A stretch of 64,000 bases of DNA from Gemmatimonadales bacterium (GCA_036556025.1 DATBKD010000033.1:11756-75755), one strand, 5' to 3'; positions 25,125-37,516 are shown, numbered from the stretch's first letter. Notes: generated by a model from the letters alone, not told the origin. Numbers and translations are program-made.

Positions 25125-25151
25125 TAGCACTCTTTGTCGCTGAGTGCTAAC
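25125..25151. promoter_or_regulatory. CIRCE operator (HrcA binding site)
   Basis: TTAGCACTC-N9-GAGTGCTAA, a perfect match to the CIRCE consensus, about 55 nt upstream of groES. Confidence 0.95.
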
Positions 25152-25206
25152 AGCATGGTGCCATTAATGTTACCCAATTACAACACGGCTGTGGAGGTCC
25201 CCCCAG

Positions 25207-25521
25207 ATGGCGACGGCTACCAAGAGCAAGACCACCCTCAAGATCCAGCCCCTCGAGGACCGCGTGGTGATCGCGCCGGCCGAGGAGGCGGAGGCCATGC
25301 GTGGCGGCCTGTACATCCCTGACACCGCCAAGGAAAAGCCCACCCAGGGCGAAGTGATCGCCGTTGGGCCCGGACGTTTCGAGAAGGGCGAGCGGATTCC
25401 GATGGAGCTGAAGGTCGGCGACCAGGTCATCTATGGGAAGTACAGCGGCACTCCATACACCCTCGATGGCGACGAGTATGTCATCATCAAGGCGTCGGAC
25501 GTGCTCGCCAAGCTCAGCTGA
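25207..25521 (+). CDS. groES: Co-chaperonin GroES
   Basis: LKIQPLEDRVVIAPAEEAE...GLYIPDTAKEKPTQGEVIAVGPG. Confidence 0.97.
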   Translation: MATATKSKTTLKIQPLEDRVVIAPAEEAEAMRGGLYIPDTAKEKPTQGEVIAVGPGRFEKGERIPMELKVGDQVIYGKYSGTPYTLDGDEYVIIKASDVLAKLS

Positions 25522-25551
25522 ACCCAGCTCGCACCCACTAAGGAGAACTGA

Positions 25552-27186
<1,635 letters not shown>

Positions 27187-27210
27187 GCTGGTGCGCAGTC
27201 CAGCACGCAG

Positions 27211-27242
27211 ACGCCCCGGGAGCAATCCCGGGGCGTTTTGTG
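27211..27242 (+). terminator. Rho-independent terminator after groEL (possibly bidirectional)
   Basis: ACGCCCCGGG-agcaat-CCCGGGGCGT followed by TTTGTGTT. It lies between the convergent groEL and CHAT genes. Confidence 0.8.
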
Positions 27243-27342
27243 TTCCAGTCGCGGTTAGCCGACCCCTGAGCGAGGCACCCATGTGGCGCGCACTCAGCAG
27301 GGTTGTCGATCTCCGGCGGCGCGGGTGGGTCGACTGTCACTC

Positions 27343-30243
27343 TCACGACGGCTGGGCTGCAGGTCGAGAGCGCTGAGAGGATGCCCGGAGTGCGCTCGCT
27401 CCGCGCGTTCGAGCTCGCCAACCAAGGATGAAAGCCGCCAGCACGAGCGCCCCCGCCGCGACATACCCCCACGCGCGGCGAGGTTGGTGGAGTGGAAGGC
27501 GAACCAGGGGGTCACCCACCAGGGTAAACGCGGCCCAACTGGCAGCGGGTACACCTCGCCGGATGGCCTCGAGCTTCGCGGCCTGCAAGGCCTCGCCCAG
27601 GGGCAGTCCATCGGCCAGGGCCCGATAGAACCCCTGGATGAATTGCACCGTACTCCGGTCTCCGATCTGCCATTGAGTGGCCACGACAGCACGGGCGCCG
27701 GCGGCGAGCAATGGCGCGGTGAGTCCCTGGATCCCCTCACCGGTGACTACCACCCCGCCAGCGGAGCGGCACCCCGAAAGCACCACCAGGTCGGCGTTCA
27801 ACCGCAGCGCCGCGAGATCACCGGGTCCGACCAGGCCGTTGTCCTGTGCCTCGGGCGCGAGCGCGAGCGCGGTGCCGCCAAGAGAATGATCGTCCACCAG
27901 GGCATGCGTGGCGAAGTGCAGCACCTCAAAGTCGGCGAGCGGGAAGTGCTTGAGGTACTGGGCGCTCGCCTCCTTGCCCAGTCGCACCTCCGCATTCGGT
28001 GCATAGGTCGCGACCAGCTTCGCTTCCCGCTTTGACGCCTCAAGCCGGGGCAGAGTGCGCACGTCGGGATCGCCAAATGCGAGCAGCTTTACTGATCCCC
28101 CGGCTCTTGGCCGGGGATCGGGATGAGTCCACAGGGCGGAGATCACCCGGGCGGATGGCGCCGCGCTGATACTGTACCGCTCGACCACGGAGTGGCCGTC
28201 GGCCAGTTGCAGCGCGTCGAACGGGAGGCGGTGAAGTGGTCCGTCCGGCACCACGACGATACGCTTGATCTGCGGGCTCAGATCACTGAGGACAGGCCAG
28301 AGAAGGACTTTTCCCAACTCTCGGGCCAGCGGGTCCGCGGCGCCACCGCTCTCCAGGATTCCAAGAAAGCGCCCGATCGGGTCCACCAGCGAGTCCGCGG
28401 ACATCGTCACATGCGCCTTCACCCGGCCGGTCGGGGCGGCGCCTCGAGTGATCACGAACAGAGTGGTGGGCGCCCCCATCCCGCCGGTGACGTACTGAAT
28501 CAGCGCGGTGCTGTCATCAGGGAGGATCGCGGCTACAGCCTCTGCCGTCAGGGTTGAATCGGCCCGCCTGCTCCGGGCAGTCGCAGGGGCAGCGGTCGCC
28601 AGCGCCTGGGCTTGCGCCAGCCGGTCCCCCAGCTCGCGCGCCCGTCGGCGTTCTGCCAGAGCGAAGGCGCTGGTGATTCGGCCACTCTGGACCAGCCCAG
28701 CCAGGACCCGGGCGACGCTCGCATTGTGGTCGTTCACGAACTGCGGTCCTGCCTGAAAAGCGAACGCGCGAAGCTCCGTGTCGTCCACCGTCGAGCGCCA
28801 GCGCTCGAGCTCCGTCATCGCTCCGGTCAGTTCCCGCTCCGCCTCCGCGGCATGACCCGAGCGGGCGTACACGTCCGCGAGATAGGTCCGCACTTCGTAA
28901 CGCTGAAGGTGCTCGGTCGAGTCGAGCCGGATCAGATACTGGCGGAACCACCGCCGGGCGGGTTCCAGATCTCCCTGCCGCAGAGCGACTCGCCCGCGCT
29001 GATAGGGCAGCGCCACGGACCATTCGCCTCCCCCGTATCGCCGGGCCAACGCCTCGAGGGAGTCCAACTCCCGCTTCGCAGCGGCGAAGTCACCGGCCCC
29101 CATCTCAATGTCGGCGAGCTCCTGATGCTGCTCGGCCTGGTATGCCACGTCGCCCTGGCCCCGGTAGTACTCCAGCGCTTCCCGGATCGCGGCTCGCGCG
29201 CCGGCCCAGTCTCCCGCGGCCCGGTGGACGCTCCCTCGCCAGGAGCGTGCGAGCATTTCGCCCCGGCGGTCACCCAGCGAGGCATAGGCGGCGATGGCTT
29301 GTTCCAGGTGGCCAGCCGCAGTCACCTGATCGTTGAGCGCGAAGAACACCTGGCCCAAATCGAGCTCCACCGAGGCTGCCACCACCGCGGCTCGCGCGGC
29401 GGTAGCCTCCTCCAACGCACGCCGCAGCACCTCGCGCGCCTCGCCGTAGGCGGTGCGATGCAACAGCACGTCGGCCTGCCACAGCAGCGCTTCGCTGAGG
29501 CCCGCCCGATCCCGCGCCGCCCGCCGCAGAGCTTCGAGCCGTCGGAGCATGACGAGCGCGGAGTCCCGTTCGCCGCGATAGAGCAGATCGACCTGGCGCC
29601 CCCGGAGACAGAACGCTTCCGCCCGCCGGTACCCGTGTGCGACGGCCAGGTCGAGGGTCACCGCCAGCACCGCGGCCGCGGCGGTGTCGCCCTGGAGCAG
29701 GTCCAGGTGGGCGCGCCGGCACCGGGCGGCGCCCGCCGCATCGGCGGCGCTCGAGGGAAAGGCGGCGCGGGCGCTGTCGAAGTAGGCTCGACCGACAGCC
29801 AGCCCTCCCATTCGCAGGCGGGTCCCGCCCAAACGCAGGAGGGCTTCTCCCATGGCCAACGAGTCATGCAGCGCGCGGGCCCCGGTCAGCGCCCGCTCAA
29901 GGAGGCTATCGGCCTTCGCCACCCGTCCCAGGACGACCAGGGCATCTGCCTGCCCAAGGGCCGCATACACCGCATAGGCGTCGGCCCCTGGCCAGCTCGA
30001 GGGGAGGAGCTCCCGGTACAGCCGTTCCGCTTCGGGATAGTCGTACCGCAGCCGCCCCAGCGTCGCGAGGCCAAGGCGGGCCGCACGGCCTTCCCCTTCA
30101 GAGCGAAGCTGTGCCGTCCAACGTGCGGCCGCCTGCTGTACGGTGTCGCCGGCGACGGCAGCGGAGGCCTCCGCCACAACGGAGGGAGCCGTCTCCGCCG
30201 GGGCTTGTTGCAGCGCGAGTGCCAGAGAGAGCAGGGAGATCAT
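27343..30243 (-). CDS. TPR-repeat + CHAT (caspase-like peptidase) domain protein with C-terminal membrane anchor (paralog A)
   Basis: ORF 27343..30315 trimmed to the ATG at 30243 (ATGA overlap with the upstream paralog). N-terminal signal-like MISLLSLALAL. A long TPR-like helical array. CHAT motifs VVVPDGPLHRLPFDAL, HFATHALVD (His codon 27904-27906) and VVLSGCRSAGG (Cys codon 27769-27771). TM segment WGYVAAGALVLAAFILGW followed by a basic tail. Confidence 0.85.
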   Translation of the reverse strand: MISLLSLALALQQAPAETAPSVVAEASAAVAGDTVQQAAARWTAQLRSEGEGRAARLGLATLGRLRYDYPEAERLYRELLPSSWPGADAYAVYAALGQADALVVLGRVAKADSLLERALTGARALHDSLAMGEALLRLGGTRLRMGGLAVGRAYFDSARAAFPSSAADAAGAARCRRAHLDLLQGDTAAAAVLAVTLDLAVAHGYRRAEAFCLRGRQVDLLYRGERDSALVMLRRLEALRRAARDRAGLSEALLWQADVLLHRTAYGEAREVLRRALEEATAARAAVVAASVELDLGQVFFALNDQVTAAGHLEQAIAAYASLGDRRGEMLARSWRGSVHRAAGDWAGARAAIREALEYYRGQGDVAYQAEQHQELADIEMGAGDFAAAKRELDSLEALARRYGGGEWSVALPYQRGRVALRQGDLEPARRWFRQYLIRLDSTEHLQRYEVRTYLADVYARSGHAAEAERELTGAMTELERWRSTVDDTELRAFAFQAGPQFVNDHNASVARVLAGLVQSGRITSAFALAERRRARELGDRLAQAQALATAAPATARSRRADSTLTAEAVAAILPDDSTALIQYVTGGMGAPTTLFVITRGAAPTGRVKAHVTMSADSLVDPIGRFLGILESGGAADPLARELGKVLLWPVLSDLSPQIKRIVVVPDGPLHRLPFDALQLADGHSVVERYSISAAPSARVISALWTHPDPRPRAGGSVKLLAFGDPDVRTLPRLEASKREAKLVATYAPNAEVRLGKEASAQYLKHFPLADFEVLHFATHALVDDHSLGGTALALAPEAQDNGLVGPGDLAALRLNADLVVLSGCRSAGGVVVTGEGIQGLTAPLLAAGARAVVATQWQIGDRSTVQFIQGFYRALADGLPLGEALQAAKLEAIRRGVPAASWAAFTLVGDPLVRLPLHQPRRAWGYVAAGALVLAAFILGWRARTRGASALRASSQRSRPAAQPS

Positions 30244-33197
30244 CGAACCCGTGCCGAGCGTTTCCACAGGCCGTACCCCAGCGCCACACATCCAAACACC
30301 GCCGCCGAGATCCAATACGGCATCGCCTCATGCGAAGTACGAAGCCGCACGCGAATCGTCGGATCGCCCATCAGGGTGAAAGCGGCCCATTCGCCGGGTG
30401 GTCTTTTCTGCTGGATCATCCGGAGCTTTGCATTCCTGAGCGCCTGTGCCTCTGGTTGTCCCCGCGAGAGCTCCTGGTAGAACGCATCGATCAGTCTATT
30501 GGTCCCGCGATCGTTGATCCGCCACCCGGTCGCCAGAATGGAGCGTGCGCCGGCCTGCAACAGCGGAGCACTGAGACCCTGCACTCCCTCACCGTCTACC
30601 ACGACACCACCGGCCGACTGACAGGCCGAGACCACGACGAGATCCGCCGCGAGATGGAGTCCCGCGAGCTCGCCCGGTCCCAGGTATCCGGTCTCACCCT
30701 CTCCGGGTGCGAGCACCAGAGCCGTGCGGCCAGCCGCGTGCTCATCCACCAGAGCATGAGTGGCCAGATGGACGATCTGATAGCCCGTGAGATCGGCTCG
30801 CTTGAGGAACGCCGCGCTGGCCGACTCTCGAAGCCGGACGTCGGCGGATGCGGCGTATCGCGCCGCTCGCTCGACTTCCCGGGCCGATCCCTCGAGCCGG
30901 GGCAGGCCGCCGGCGCTGGCAAAGGCTTCCTGATAGGTTGCGGCAGCGGCCCGCGCCGCCTGGCCGACGTCGGACCCGGGTTGCCCCGTTGGAAATGACG
31001 GATCGCCCAACGCGAGCAGGCGAGTCGTCTGGGGCGCCAAGTCCCTGGGTCGTTGCCATAAGTCGACGAGAATCCTGGCGGAGGGAACCGTACTGATGGC
31101 GAATCGCTCGACCAGCGAGCGGCCGTCTGGCAGCAGCAGCACATCAAACGGCAGCCGGTGCAGCGGTCCATCGGGGATGATGATGAGGCGATTGATGCTG
31201 GAATCGAGATCCGGCAAGATGGGGTCGAATAGCGCTGCCCCCAGCGCGCGAGCGATGGCAGGAGCCTGGTCCCCGCTCTCCAGGAACGCGATCAGCCGGC
31301 CGATCTCTCCGGCAAGTGAGTCGGCCGGAGGAAGCACGGCGGCCCGGATGATCTCGCGCACTCTTCCCGGCCGGCCAACCAGGAATACCGTGGTGGGAGC
31401 GCCGTAGGCGCCGGTCGCATACTCCAGAATGGCGGTGCTGTCGTCCGGGATCAGCGCCGCAAGGGTGGGTGCGTCGAGGTTCTTTTCCGACGCAGGCGCC
31501 GAGCGATTTGTCTGAGAATCGGGCCGGGACGACACCAATGCCTGCGCCCGGCCCATTCGGTCGGCCAGCTCCCGCGCTCGCCGATGTTCGGCGAGCGCGA
31601 AAGCTGCGGCGGCTCTCCCCCCTTTGGCCAGCATCGCAAGCACCCAGGCGATACTGTTGTTGCGATCGTTGGCCTCGGAGGTGCTTGCCTGGAACGCGAG
31701 GGTGCGTAGCTCCCGGTCCTCCAGGGTCGCGCGCCACGCATCCAGTTGCGAAGTGGCCAGCGTCAGCTCCCGTTCAGCTTGGTCCAGTTGATTCCGTCGA
31801 GCGTAGATCTCGGCGAGATACGCCCGAGTCTCGTATTGCCAGAGACCCTCTCGAGAGCCAAGGCTCGCCAGGTACCGCTTGAAGTTCCGCTCCGCGGTTC
31901 CCAGGTCACCTTGCAGGAGCGCCAGCCGGCCGCGGTAACTGGGCATGTCCGGGTCTGCCGCTGCGGTGCCGCGGACCTTGAGCAACCCGGCTGCCGAGTC
32001 CAAGGCCTGTGCGGCGGCGCCCCAGTCCCCTTCTCGCATGGCGATATCGGCCAGGGTCTGATACAGGTCAGCTTCGTGCGAGATGTCACCTTGCCGCCTG
32101 AAGAACCCGATCGCGTCCAGGGTTTCCTGCCGGGCGCCGCCGAAGTCCCCGGTCGCCTCCTTTACCTGCATCGACCAGGAGCGGGCCATCATGAGACCGC
32201 CGGTGTCGGCTTGAGCCGTGTACTCGCGGATGGCCTGCTTGACGTACCCGGCGGCCGTCGCGTTGTCATTGAGCCGAAAGTACAGGGCGGCCAGTGCCAG
32301 CTTGGTCGACGCCAGCACATAGAGGTTGTGGGAAGCCCCGGCCTCGGCCAGAGCGAGGTGCCAGGCATTGAGCGCCTCGCCGAATGCGGCCAGATCCAGC
32401 AGGGCTTCTCCCTCGAGAAAGAGGGCCTCCGCCCGCCGGCTTCGGTCCCTGGTTCGCCGGCGAATCTCCTCCATCATCCGCAGGTCGGCCAGCGTGGAGT
32501 CGTAGTGCCCGGCAAAGCGGTGTTCCAAGGCACGGACCCGGAGACACATGGCCTCAGCGCGAGGCTCTGAGACTCGCCGGCTGAAGTCCAGGGCGGAGGC
32601 CAGCTCCTGGGACGCTGACGGATCGCCAAGGACCAGACGAAACTGAGCCCGAAGACACCGGCTGGCGGCTTGCACGAGGGACACGTCGCGCGGGGTGATC
32701 CGGAGGGCAGTATCTACCAGCGCGATGCCGACCTCGGCTCCCTGGCTCAGGGACCGGATTCGACCCAGCCAGAGAATGGCCTGTCCCTCCGCACCTCGAT
32801 CACCCGTCGCCCGTGCGTCGGCCCGCGCCTTGACCAGAAGCTGGTCGATCTCGCCTAGGCGCCCTTGCTCGTAGAGACCCTCGGCGAGTCCCAGATGGGC
32901 GTAGGCGGAGACGTGGCGATCGTCCGTCGGAGTGACGGCAAAGAGGCTGCGGTACAGCGAGTCGGCGGAGGGGTACTCATAGGTAAGGCGCGCGAGCGTG
33001 GCGAGGGCGAGCCTGGCAGTCGGGTTGGCGCTATCACGTGCTTCCAGCGCCGTCCATTGTGACCGAACCGTCGAGGCGCGATCGGCCTCAACGGCCACGG
33101 TCACCTCCCGCACGATTGCGCGAGGGTCGCTCGGGGCGGTGCCCTGAAGAAGGACGGCCGCGGAACCCGCAACCGCGATGACGGTGAGCATGGGCAA
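30240..33197 (-). CDS. TPR-repeat + CHAT domain protein with C-terminal membrane anchor (paralog B)
   Basis: Same architecture as paralog A. Motifs IIIPDGPLHRLPFDVL, HLATHALVD (His codon 30756-30758) and VVVSACQSAGG (Cys codon 30621-30623). TM segment YWISAAVFGCVALGYGLW followed by KRSARVR. Confidence 0.85.
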   Translation of the reverse strand: MPMLTVIAVAGSAAVLLQGTAPSDPRAIVREVTVAVEADRASTVRSQWTALEARDSANPTARLALATLARLTYEYPSADSLYRSLFAVTPTDDRHVSAYAHLGLAEGLYEQGRLGEIDQLLVKARADARATGDRGAEGQAILWLGRIRSLSQGAEVGIALVDTALRITPRDVSLVQAASRCLRAQFRLVLGDPSASQELASALDFSRRVSEPRAEAMCLRVRALEHRFAGHYDSTLADLRMMEEIRRRTRDRSRRAEALFLEGEALLDLAAFGEALNAWHLALAEAGASHNLYVLASTKLALAALYFRLNDNATAAGYVKQAIREYTAQADTGGLMMARSWSMQVKEATGDFGGARQETLDAIGFFRRQGDISHEADLYQTLADIAMREGDWGAAAQALDSAAGLLKVRGTAAADPDMPSYRGRLALLQGDLGTAERNFKRYLASLGSREGLWQYETRAYLAEIYARRNQLDQAERELTLATSQLDAWRATLEDRELRTLAFQASTSEANDRNNSIAWVLAMLAKGGRAAAAFALAEHRRARELADRMGRAQALVSSRPDSQTNRSAPASEKNLDAPTLAALIPDDSTAILEYATGAYGAPTTVFLVGRPGRVREIIRAAVLPPADSLAGEIGRLIAFLESGDQAPAIARALGAALFDPILPDLDSSINRLIIIPDGPLHRLPFDVLLLPDGRSLVERFAISTVPSARILVDLWQRPRDLAPQTTRLLALGDPSFPTGQPGSDVGQAARAAAATYQEAFASAGGLPRLEGSAREVERAARYAASADVRLRESASAAFLKRADLTGYQIVHLATHALVDEHAAGRTALVLAPGEGETGYLGPGELAGLHLAADLVVVSACQSAGGVVVDGEGVQGLSAPLLQAGARSILATGWRINDRGTNRLIDAFYQELSRGQPEAQALRNAKLRMIQQKRPPGEWAAFTLMGDPTIRVRLRTSHEAMPYWISAAVFGCVALGYGLWKRSARVR

Positions 33198-33377
33198 TGC
33201 TACAGTGATGCCGGTGCGGGAGTTCGCGCAAGAGCGAGTAGTGCACGGCGTTGCGCGAAATGAGAAAAAAATGAGGCGGTCTGCGTTCCTCTACCGGCAG
33301 CAGTGGGTTGATTGGCCGTTGGGGGCGCCACGGCGCTCGTGCTGGCGGCCGAATTGAGGGCGGCATACGATTGAAGG

Positions 33378-33923
33378 ATGACCGACCCCTCCGATCGAGT
33401 CTCCGCCTCTCTCGAAGCGCTGGTGGCCCGATTTGGCAGAATGGTCCGGCGGGTCGGCTTCGATCATGGCCTCACCGAGACCGACGTGGAAGAAGTGGTG
33501 CAGGAGGTGCGGATCCGGATCTGGAAGGCCCGGGCGGACATAATTGGTGAGCTCCAGGCCGCTTACGTCCACCGTACCGCCGTCTCGGCGGCACTGGATA
33601 TTATCCGGCGCCGACGGTCCGAGGCTAGGTTCGGGAGCAGTGATCCCGAGGAGGACGTTGCGATTACCACTGATTCAACGCTCGACGCGCAGCGAGGCTT
33701 GGAGGTCGCCGAAATGGAGGCGGGCGTTGCCCGGATGGTTGAAGCGCTTGCCGCCTCCCGGCGGCCGGTCGTCCGGATGTATCTGCAGGGCTATTCCCGC
33801 GAGGAGATCGCGGAGCTCCTGGGGTGGTCGGAGGGCAAGACCAGAAACCTGTTGTATCGCGGGCTGGCAGACCTTCGATCCATGCTGACGGCGAAGGGAC
33901 TTGGGCCGGGGGGTGACCGATGA
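33378..33923 (+). CDS. ECF-type RNA polymerase sigma factor (sigma70 regions 2 and 4)
   Basis: Region 2: DVEEVVQEVRIRIWKA. Region 4: VVRMYLQGYSREEIAELLGWSEGKTRNLLYRGLADLR. It is divergent from the CHAT genes, and its stop overlaps the anti-sigma start as ATGA. Confidence 0.85.
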   Translation: MTDPSDRVSASLEALVARFGRMVRRVGFDHGLTETDVEEVVQEVRIRIWKARADIIGELQAAYVHRTAVSAALDIIRRRRSEARFGSSDPEEDVAITTDSTLDAQRGLEVAEMEAGVARMVEALAASRRPVVRMYLQGYSREEIAELLGWSEGKTRNLLYRGLADLRSMLTAKGLGPGGDR

Positions 33924-34564
33924 CCGACGAGGAGCTGCGACGGGCCTATCAGGCAGCAGTGGCGACGCGTCAGAAAGGTCGGGAAGATTGTCCCGCTCCC
34001 GAGGCACTCAGCAGTTTGGTTGCGCGCGAAGGCAATGAGTCCAACCGGTTGGCCCTTCTGGACCACGTCATGACCTGTCCTGCCTGCCGACACGAGTTCG
34101 AGTTGCTTCGGGCGGTGCATGTGGCAGGCCGACCGCGTCCTGCTTGGCGTTACCAGCCTCTCGCGTTGGCGGCATCGATTGCACTCCTGGTGGGCCTCGG
34201 CGGCGCGGCGCTCTGGTCCAGACTGATGCCCTCCGGACCCGACACCCTCCGAGGGGGCGGGGGCGGGGGAGGGGGCGGGGGCGCGGGACAGGTGGAGCTG
34301 GTGCGCCCGACCGCCGGATCGGTGGTCACCCCGCCGCTCACGCTCGTGTGGCGGACCGTGTCCGGCACGCGTATCTACACCGTGGAGCTCCTCGCTCCCG
34401 ATGGGCGCCTGGTAAAGTCCTGGACCACGGCGGACACCTCCATCACCCTTTCCAATCCGGCTTCCGCCCATGTGCCCGCCGGCGCCTACGCCTGGTGGGT
34501 GCGCGCCCGTCTCCCCGACGGGTCGGAACGGCGGTCGACCGTGACCCGATTCGAGCTGCACTGA
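33920..34564 (+). CDS. Membrane-spanning anti-sigma factor (zinc-binding ZAS-type, HxxxCxxC) with extracytoplasmic beta-rich domain
   Basis: HVMTCPACRH motif. Single TM LALAASIALLVGLGGAALW. A Gly10 linker. A C-terminal ~100-aa domain (LTLVWRTVSGTRIYTVELLAPDG...). Confidence 0.75.
   Translation: MTDEELRRAYQAAVATRQKGREDCPAPEALSSLVAREGNESNRLALLDHVMTCPACRHEFELLRAVHVAGRPRPAWRYQPLALAASIALLVGLGGAALWSRLMPSGPDTLRGGGGGGGGGGAGQVELVRPTAGSVVTPPLTLVWRTVSGTRIYTVELLAPDGRLVKSWTTADTSITLSNPASAHVPAGAYAWWVRARLPDGSERRSTVTRFELH
34253..34281 (+). repeat. Five consecutive G5 runs (GGGGGC-type hexamer repeat), a G-quadruplex-capable tract encoding poly-Gly
   Basis: GGGGGCGGGGGCGGGGGAGGGGGCGGGGG lies inside the anti-sigma gene, in frame as GGGGGGGGGG. 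Confidence 0.9.
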
Positions 34565-34680
34565 AGCGACGGGTTTCCAGCCCGTTGGGATGTCGGTGTG
34601 AGACAGCCGGAGCGTGGCTCACGTTCCTCTAGTGAGTTTGCGATCCGACTTCCCGCTACATCTCGACTTCGGAGCCCGCC

Positions 34681-37402: not shown

Positions 37403-37516
37403 GGCTGAGAAGAAACGCAGCGTCGTGGCGTTAATCGGATAGCAGTCGCCAGACAGCTATTTCCACCCGAATTCACGTCCTGCACCACACGCGCCCGCGA
37501 GGGCGAGGAGCCGCGT

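Follow-up and report, generated by a model that had tools for sequence, protein, structure and literature searches.

A conserved module of TPR-CHAT proteins, an ECF sigma factor and its anti-sigma factor in Gemmatimonadota, with a possible role in envelope signalling

A 64,000-nt stretch of DNA from a Gemmatimonadales bacterium (GCA_036556025.1, DATBKD010000033.1:11756-75755), referred to here in its entirety as the window, carries two adjacent genes for large TPR-CHAT proteins, chatA and chatB, divergent from a gene pair for a sigma factor of the extracytoplasmic function (ECF) class and a single-pass anti-sigma factor. An initial annotation of the window had described this gene pair and its divergent sigma/anti-sigma module, and both are present at the positions given for them (Table 1). 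We found that the three kinds of gene tend to stay together in other genomes of the phylum and that an ECF-type promoter motif precedes chatA. The best explanation of the whole, to which we assign a probability of about one half, is that these genes form an envelope signalling module of three components, conserved in Gemmatimonadota.

Adjacency of the components was assessed from both ends. Starting from the CHAT proteins, we found 481 relatives in species-representative genomes and fetched 80 loci, of which the 73 that are not cut at the CHAT 3′ end are informative; sigma orthologs, anti-sigma orthologs or both adjoin CHAT in 55 of these 73 GTDB loci. Starting from the sigma factor, whose alignment was used for the metagenome scan as that of the anti-sigma factor is too variable, we found 535 relatives and again took 80 loci. 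Of these, 27 show 1 kb or more of sequence on either flank, and CHAT adjoins the sigma pair in 20 of them; the anti-sigma gene follows sigma wherever downstream sequence is visible. A start from anti-sigma homologs placed CHAT adjacent in three of four long contigs. Sigma orthologs at CHAT loci score 130–190 bits, compared with about 33 bits for the best ECF sigma factor in the PDB, and anti-sigma orthologs score 75–133 bits. Homologs of the locus proteins come from Gemmatimonadota, and nearly all of the fetched loci belong to metagenome-assembled genomes of this phylum. The co-conservation on which the initial annotation had made its proposal depend is thus real; the linkage is strong, not obligatory.

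Linkage is kept in convergent, divergent and co-directional layouts and therefore survives rearrangement. In the commonest of these, CHAT runs towards the anti-sigma gene, which is followed in turn by sigma (CHAT→ ←anti-sigma ←sigma), and the 3′ ends of the open reading frames (ORFs) overlap by 14–85 nt. The divergent layout of the window recurs in L081, L082, L083, L035, L056, L075, L115, L121, L147, L153 and L160, and a co-directional layout occurs in L019 (the comparison of motifs in sigma ORFs described below, made on GTDB and metagenome loci, covers L002–L080 and L087–L164). In convergent loci, such as L003:12838-12916 and L028:12814-12898, the stretch that encodes the transmembrane (TM) helix and tail of the CHAT protein lies antisense to the codons for the final strands of the anti-sigma ectodomain.

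Upstream of chatA lies a bipartite motif of the GGAAC-N17/18-TCTnA form that is typical of ECF promoters. It reads AGAGGAACGCAGACCGCCTCATTTTTTTCTCAT (minus strand, 33260-33292), lies 69 nt upstream of the chatA ATG and, at 24.1 bits, is the best match to our position weight matrix (PWM) in the whole window, that is, in 128 kb of strand. In L081 and L082 both hexamers are kept and the spacer between them varies; L083 has an equivalent site. In its general form, (G)nAACGC-N16/17-(A)TTCTCAC, the motif occurs upstream of many CHAT and sigma genes. By a strict definition it was present upstream of CHAT in 12 of 76 regions and upstream of sigma in 9 of 51, where shuffled sequences gave 0.04 and 0.02 and the opposite strand 2 and 1. 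The PWM, trained on CHAT and sigma upstream sites only and applied at a threshold of at least 16 bits, matched 90 times in 2.9 Mb of GTDB loci against 6 times in shuffled sequence, and 72 times against 4 in the independent metagenome loci; 56 of the 90 and 61 of the 72 matches are module-associated. The motif has to be bipartite to be informative: ATTCTCAC by itself occurs 20 times in the window, where 30 matches are expected, and so is not enriched. The two regions in which the initial annotation had suggested that an ECF-type motif might be sought, 33198-33377 and 34565-34680, both carry GGAACG-N18-TCTCA on the minus strand, and its option that the ECF factor controls the proteases gains direct sequence support from the copy upstream of chatA. 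We infer that this copy is the cognate promoter of the local sigma factor, which would place chatAB in the sigma regulon.

The sigma/anti-sigma operon itself has a different kind of start. A TAnnnT hexamer, TACGAT in the window, lies 5–8 nt before the sigma start codon in most of 51 loci, often with TTGnnn 16–18 nt further upstream, an arrangement that suggests a leaderless mRNA made from a housekeeping-type promoter. A generic scan for sigma-70 promoters and terminators yielded nothing useful. We also considered an inverted repeat in the chatA 5′ leader as an RNA structure and set it aside as not significant (z = -0.62). Three of the four best motif matches in the window are on the minus strand, intergenic and no more than 4.2 kb upstream of chatA; the third ECF-type match (37405-37437, minus strand, 21.8 bits, TTAACGC-N-TTCTCAG) falls in the gap after an OmpA-like gene. 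Four other loci have a distal copy of the motif 500–600 nt upstream of the proximal CHAT promoter (L014:9250-9282, L021:440-470, L036:9210-9242 and L050:4925-4955 (+)), running antisense through an oppositely oriented gene for a small membrane protein or lipoprotein.

A second copy of the motif faces the sigma operon from its far end. In the window it reads AGAGGAACGTGAGCCACGCTCCGGCTGTCTCAC (34598-34630, minus strand), shares AGAGGAACG with the chatA promoter and lies 34 nt downstream of the anti-sigma stop codon, pointing into the sigma operon and co-directional with chatAB. Equivalents at the same position were found in L081 (18.2 bits), L083 (23.3 bits), L010 and L045. In many other loci the motif lies antisense inside the sigma ORF (23 of 52 GTDB loci and 35 of 80 metagenome loci; for example, L013:13930-13960, plus strand). 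At the -10 element of these internal copies the encoded residue is Ser or Gly and the codon AGT (21 loci) or GGT (17 loci), although AGT is the rarest Ser codon in these sigma genes (55 of 742). At the -35 element the residue is Ala, Ser or Thr and the codon always nCG, and the codon preceding it ends in T in at least 32 of 59 cases, compared with 11% overall. Because the amino acids vary but the nucleotides (AGT/GGT-GAG, nCG-TCn and the third-position T) do not, the pattern indicates selection at the level of a DNA motif, not of the protein. The sigma ORF of the window (33378-33923) and those of its clade have no internal copy and have the external one instead, so that the distribution is complementary, and in the convergent, overlapping layout CHAT transcription must run into the anti-sigma gene. 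We infer that what unites these arrangements is that ECF-type transcription converges on the sigma operon, which may act as a built-in negative feedback, a reading that goes beyond the initial annotation. One locus, L120, has a sigma pair with no CHAT gene and, directly after the anti-sigma gene, a motif (L120:8199-8231, minus strand) that differs little from the L116 CHAT promoter; it looks as though a deletion had removed CHAT and left the convergent promoter in place.

The minus-strand ORFs of the twin genes span 27343-30315 and 30240-33197, with likely ATG starts at 30243 and 33191, and an ATGA at 30240-30243 contains both the chatA stop and the chatB start, as the initial annotation had noted. 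The products are 45% identical over 925 aa. Both match the Pfam CHAT profile (PF12770) far above its cut-off of 24 bits (ChatB, E = 1.3e-61, 209 bits; ChatA, E = 6.8e-64, 216.5 bits), and the catalytic His and Cys are invariant across a 30-sequence family alignment spanning 30–62% identity. The intact dyad claimed for both paralogs is upheld by these matches and by this invariance, and we regard ChatA and ChatB as putative caspase-like cysteine proteases. The single C-terminal TM helix with its basic tail is likewise found in both. The claimed TPR array holds in part: ChatB matches Pfam TPR profiles and a solenoid appears in the ChatA model and in profile matches, but ChatA has no Pfam TPR match.

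An AlphaFold2 model of ChatA, built on the family alignment, has a mean predicted local distance difference test (pLDDT) score of 85 and a predicted template modelling score (pTM) of 0.82. In the model, a detached, low-confidence N-terminal helix (residues 2–14) precedes an α-solenoid of about 27 helices (residues 23–551), which is followed by the α/β CHAT domain and a terminal helix at residues 959–982. By Foldseek against the PDB, the model matched DdvA first (8rw5, E = 3.8e-15; 8rot), then human separase and Csx29, and it is safe to say that ChatA is predicted to have an architecture of the separase, craspase and DdvA type, with DdvA nominally closest. Searches of PDB sequences with the family profile and with the CHAT domain alone returned TPR proteins or nothing, so DdvA was found by fold only. 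DdvA is a transmembrane anti-sigma factor of Myxococcus xanthus with a zinc-type anti-sigma (ZAS) domain and a periplasmic TPR-CHAT part, and its partner is DdvS (PMC11506125).

The location of the CHAT proteins bears directly on the proposed module. A hydrophobic N-terminal segment is present in 85 of 98 full-length homologs, many of them with canonical MR... or MK... n-regions, and a hydrophobic C-terminal helix in 75 of the 98, followed by a tail with a median length of 13 aa and means of 5.1 Lys and Arg and 0.9 Asp and Glu. The C-terminal helix and tail could have been an artefact of the ORF overlap with the anti-sigma gene; the window copies keep both without overlap, and we rejected this explanation. 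Because of the N-terminal segments of the homologs, the basic C-terminal tails and the DdvA match, it is more likely that ChatA and ChatB are exported, C-terminally anchored and extracytoplasmic, which was also the topology first proposed for their TPR and CHAT parts. The signal-like N-termini that accompanied that proposal stand in so far as the hydrophobic segment is there; the basic n-region, canonical in many homologs, is missing from the window copies.

A second full-length CHAT gene was found in none of the 80 GTDB loci. L081, whose ChatA is 75% identical to that of the window, keeps the tandem pair, its ATGA overlap and a 78%-identical ChatB with intact dyad. L082 and L083 have a single CHAT gene between sigma and groESL, that of L082 encoding a protein 60% identical to ChatA. 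With 45% identity, ChatB resembles ChatA less closely than the ChatA orthologs of other genomes do, and it is therefore an old or imported paralog kept under selection. As DdvA works as a dimer with its active sites facing the interface (PMC11506125), ChatA and ChatB may form a heterodimer where single-copy loci use a homodimer.

Across the 186-nt gap from chatA, the sigma gene encodes a protein with sigma2 and sigma4 domains only. It matches Sigma70_r2 (32.1 bits, cut-off 24), Sigma70_r4_2 (39, cut-off 25.7) and TIGR02937, the sigma70-ECF family (53.3, cut-off 42.9); none of the NCBIfam subfamilies reached its cut-off, and the main text of the ECF reclassification paper makes no mention of CHAT or Gemmatimonadetes. 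The sigma and anti-sigma genes are coupled by an ATGA overlap. In the anti-sigma factor, an H49-x3-C53-x2-C56 motif and C24 lie in the N-terminal helical domain; Pfam zf-HC2 remains below its cut-off (16.5 against 22.2 bits), and Cys residues are lost in some orthologs. We assign the protein to the ZAS type, with sigma and zinc binding predicted. Its model (mean pLDDT 80) ends in a β-sandwich with a weak structural match to Fn3-type modules. Together, the profile matches, the overlap and the one TM helix agree with the initial description of an ECF sigma factor translationally coupled to a single-pass HxxxCxxC anti-sigma factor, and the Fn3-like sandwich with that of a small, β-rich ectodomain. 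All anti-sigma orthologs (53 from GTDB and 34 from databases) are about 200 aa long and have no CHAT domain.

Between TM helix and ectodomain, the anti-sigma factor has a linker with one striking residue. Eight alignment columns are invariant across 34 diverse anti-sigma orthologs, and R111 is among them; it is present throughout both ortholog sets (34 of 34 and 53 of 53), nine residues past the TM helix, in the context D-x-x-R-(G/S/A). The position directly after it tolerates insertions, one clade having 5–7 extra residues. An invariant Arg in a disordered linker of variable length is what a protease recognition site would be expected to look like, and we treat it as a lead. Cutting after Arg is a property of separase-type enzymes, and separase itself does so in an ExxR context. 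The Gly10 linker that the initial annotation had singled out does not hold up as a feature of the family: the run is a strain-specific insertion of eight Gly (24 nt), missing from the 99%-identical homolog P0121. It is probably a recent expansion by slippage.

Table 1. Positions of the module and other features in the window (residue numbers refer to the encoded proteins)
Feature	Position	Strand	Description
chatA	30240..33191	-	983-aa TPR-CHAT protein
chatB	27343..30243	-	966-aa paralog of ChatA
ECF sigma gene	33378..33923	+	181 aa
Single-pass anti-sigma gene	33920..34564	+	214 aa
Predicted ECF-type chatAB promoter	33260..33289	-	-35 GGAACG 33284-33289; 18-nt spacer; -10 TCTCAT 33260-33265
Second, weaker ECF-type motif	34598..34627	-	-35 GGAACG 34622-34627; 18-nt spacer; -10 TCTCAC 34598-34603
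TACGAT, sigma-70-type -10 hexamer	33366..33371	+	6 nt before sigma ATG; kept in alignment A2
ChatA parts	30264-30317 (TM helix)		Signal-like segment 1-17; α-solenoid ~23-551; CHAT 646-943; TM helix 959-976, then tail KRSARVR
ChatA dyad	30756-30758 (H812); 30621-30623 (C857)	-	
ChatB dyad	27904-27906 (H780); 27769-27771 (C825)	-	
ChatB TM helix	27418-27468	-	Residues 926-942, then Arg-rich tail RARTRGASALRASSQRSR...
Anti-sigma parts	34154-34225 (TM helix); 34298-34558 (β-sandwich)	+	Helical domain 3-70; TM helix 79-102; linker 103-121, pLDDT <50; confident β-sandwich 127-213
Arg111 codon	34250-34252	+	Candidate protease recognition site, pLDDT <50
Gly10 tract	34253-34282	+	G-rich hexamer repeats (GGGGGC-like)
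groES	25207-25521	+	Overlapped by 711-aa shadow ORF
groEL	25555-27186	+	Overlapped by 711-aa shadow ORF

As a signalling module, the locus would comprise the ECF sigma factor, a co-translated anti-sigma factor with a zinc-type domain, a disordered linker and an Fn3-like ectodomain, and one or two TPR-CHAT proteases. An N-terminal signal would direct export of the protease, and its C-terminal TM helix, with the basic tail in the cytoplasm, would tether it to the inner membrane on the outer side. Release of sigma by the anti-sigma factor would induce chatAB from the motif promoter, and the antisense-facing second copy of the motif would exert negative feedback on the sigma operon. We speculate that the TPR solenoid binds a protein ligand, upon which the CHAT domain would cut the anti-sigma linker in trans, at or near Arg111, and so provide positive feedback. 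In this last step, the TPR-CHAT protein would be a detached equivalent of the DdvA periplasmic domain, acting as a site-1 protease in trans; the site-1 role is a hypothesis that draws on analogy and on the invariant linker Arg, and we consider it rather unlikely as it stands. A full split version of the DdvA mechanism across Gemmatimonadota, in which tail-anchored homodimers, or here ChatA/ChatB heterodimers, capture a protein ligand and cut after Arg111 and positive feedback is followed by a delayed, antisense negative one, seems to us unlikely. The antisense promoter would then lie inside the sigma ORF itself or, as here, after the anti-sigma gene, and the delayed feedback would arise by convergent transcription.

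Several observations weigh against the signalling module as we describe it. About 25% of CHAT loci have no sigma pair and about 25% of sigma loci have no CHAT, and the latter showed no common alternative neighbour. The window sigma gene has no ECF motif upstream, and the antisense-facing motif of the window is weak, at 14.9 bits. The TM-scores of the structural matches to the ChatA model are low (0.40–0.44), and DdvA is only a small margin ahead of separase. The motif is found at only about 20–30% of related CHAT genes, the others having sigma-70-type promoters; sigma control of CHAT is therefore apparently lineage dependent, and it probably holds for the clade of the window. On the first of these points one might argue for a chance adjacency of unrelated genes, as roughly a quarter of the loci break the linkage in each direction, but a linkage of about 75% that persists down to about 35% protein identity, in three gene orders and with a shared promoter motif, makes chance a nearly negligible explanation. 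Two further points concern topology: the N-termini of ChatA and ChatB in the window have no basic n-region, and the 15 residues that precede the TM helix are also fairly basic (2.5 Lys and Arg). Both would suit a cytoplasmic, tail-anchored CHAT protein in which the N-terminal stretch is no signal and which acts on the anti-sigma domain or on sigma, as Csx29 does on Csx30, and characterised CHAT proteases except DdvA are all cytoplasmic (PMC11506125). We hold this arrangement to be very improbable: the N-terminal hydrophobic segment recurs in most homologs, many with MR or MK n-regions, the membrane would have to be crossed by Arg-rich tails as long as about 30 aa, the N-terminal helix of the model is detached and of low confidence, as is usual for signal peptides, and the best structural match is a periplasmic domain.

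The proteases might simply be effectors of the ECF regulon, serving envelope quality control or defence against foreign periplasmic proteins with no action on the anti-sigma factor, much as sigma-E induces DegP, with the Fn3 ectodomain sensing alone or through another protease. The direct sequence evidence, an ECF-type promoter that precedes chatAB, is regulatory only; genes next to ECF operons often turn out to be outputs of the regulon; some CHAT paralogs, at least one of them with the motif (L073), are orphans with no sigma pair beside them; and some sigma/anti-sigma pairs have no CHAT gene adjacent. We therefore take an output-only role to be possible, if on balance doubtful. Three points weigh against it: the invariance of Arg111, in a linker that otherwise varies and is disordered, calls for an explanation; adjacency is kept through rearrangement, including the 3′ ORF overlap, which is tighter than one would expect of a mere regulon member; and DdvA fuses the same fold to an anti-sigma factor, which argues for a direct functional partnership (PMC11506125). 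The converse assignment, with CHAT proteins as constitutive co-sensors or site-1 proteases that are not targets of the local sigma, would have the motif belong to a general sigma-E-like ECF factor. GGAAC-N17-TCTnA does resemble the widespread sigma-E-type consensus, sigma-70-like promoters precede the majority of CHAT genes in the family, and 34 of the 90 PWM matches in the GTDB loci lie outside the module. The motif is nevertheless concentrated on the module in both locus sets and occurs upstream of sigma itself in 11–13 loci, a classic sign of ECF autoregulation, and we judge this assignment quite improbable. The signalling module remains our preferred interpretation.

The initial annotation had presented the locus as an undescribed signalling route, and this was overstated, since two systems precede it. 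For DdvA of M. xanthus, the proposal is that it cuts its own linker in trans, after which RseP acts (PMC11506125). In the craspase system (type III-E Cas7-11, Csx29, Csx30 and CASP-sigma), cleavage of Csx30, a sigma inhibitor, by the CHAT protease Csx29 frees the ECF-like CASP-sigma (PMC10028731). What stands of the wider interpretation is the linkage, the probable periplasmic location and the predicted control of the proteases by sigma. The locus shares with DdvA an ECF sigma factor, a single-pass zinc-type anti-sigma factor and a large TPR-CHAT part, here probably extracytoplasmic, with a His/Cys dyad, and DdvA was the top structural match of the ChatA model; in DdvA, too, a flexible juxtamembrane linker is the proposed target of CHAT, ahead of RseP-type site-2 cleavage. 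Unlike in DdvA, where TPR-CHAT is fused to the anti-sigma factor, the two are here encoded by separate genes on opposite strands, the protease having its own signal-like segment and C-terminal anchor and the anti-sigma factor an Fn3-like ectodomain in place of TPR-CHAT. DdvA-like fusions have been reported only in Myxococcota and one Comamonas species (PMC11506125), whereas the present module is found in Gemmatimonadota. DdvS promoters have the consensus GTAA-n16-CGT (PMC6061681), in contrast to GGAACG-N18-TCTCA here, and DdvS drives a CBASS/CRISPR island; PADLOC gave no significant match among the neighbours of our locus, and no defence genes were found beside it.

In craspase, a TPR-CHAT protease frees an ECF-like sigma factor by cutting its inhibitor, as may be the case at this locus, and Csx29 is among the top structural matches. 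Craspase, however, is cytoplasmic and RNA-activated through Cas7-11, and Csx30 is no ZAS transmembrane anti-sigma factor; no Cas7-11, Csx30 or Csx31 gene was found among the neighbours examined within about 6 kb on each side, and no Cas genes lie beside this locus. The RseA/DegS/RseP pathway offers a further parallel, having a single-pass anti-sigma factor whose periplasmic domain a site-1 protease would remove and a similar, sigma-E-like promoter form (GGAAC...TCTnA). It differs in that its site-1 protease is a PDZ serine protease, whereas the candidate here belongs to the caspase-fold Cys proteases, has a TPR sensor and is apparently controlled by the same sigma. Separase has the same α-solenoid and CHAT architecture, and its ExxR cutting context resembles D-x-x-R111, but it is eukaryotic, nuclear or cytoplasmic, securin-regulated and without membrane context. 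A three-helix insert completes the active site in separase and Csx29 and is absent from DdvA. As the locus has no single polypeptide that joins the parts and no defence-island or Cas context, it is a member of neither the DdvA nor the craspase system, and plausibly works like them. It looks like a split, phylum-wide variant of a DdvA-type concept that has itself already been described; no description of such a split Gemmatimonadota module was found in the literature searched.

Craspase and DdvA are two unrelated cases in which a CHAT protein has been tied to the release of an ECF-type sigma factor. A third case, spanning a phylum, would, if true, suggest a general partnership between caspase-fold proteases and anti-sigma factors. 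With protease and anti-sigma factor as separate proteins, the two can be mixed and mutated independently, which is not readily so in DdvA. The predicted promoter and the antisense copy in the sigma ORF yield concrete predictions on the design of ECF feedback in a little-studied phylum.

The window has a G+C content of about 66%. On one flank of the module lie groES/groEL (25207-27186, plus strand) and a gene for RNase G, and on the other a 442-aa gene without Pfam match, the OmpA-like gene and a possible β-barrel outer-membrane protein gene with a weak Pfam match. PADLOC, NCBIfam and Rfam gave no specific classification. A 711-aa ORF on the minus strand (25147-27282), taken as a neighbour at first, is a shadow of groES/groEL: its G+C content at third codon positions is 0.64 compared with 0.89, and the genes beneath it match Pfam Cpn10 and Cpn60. 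Apparent homologs of this shadow ORF occur in other loci.

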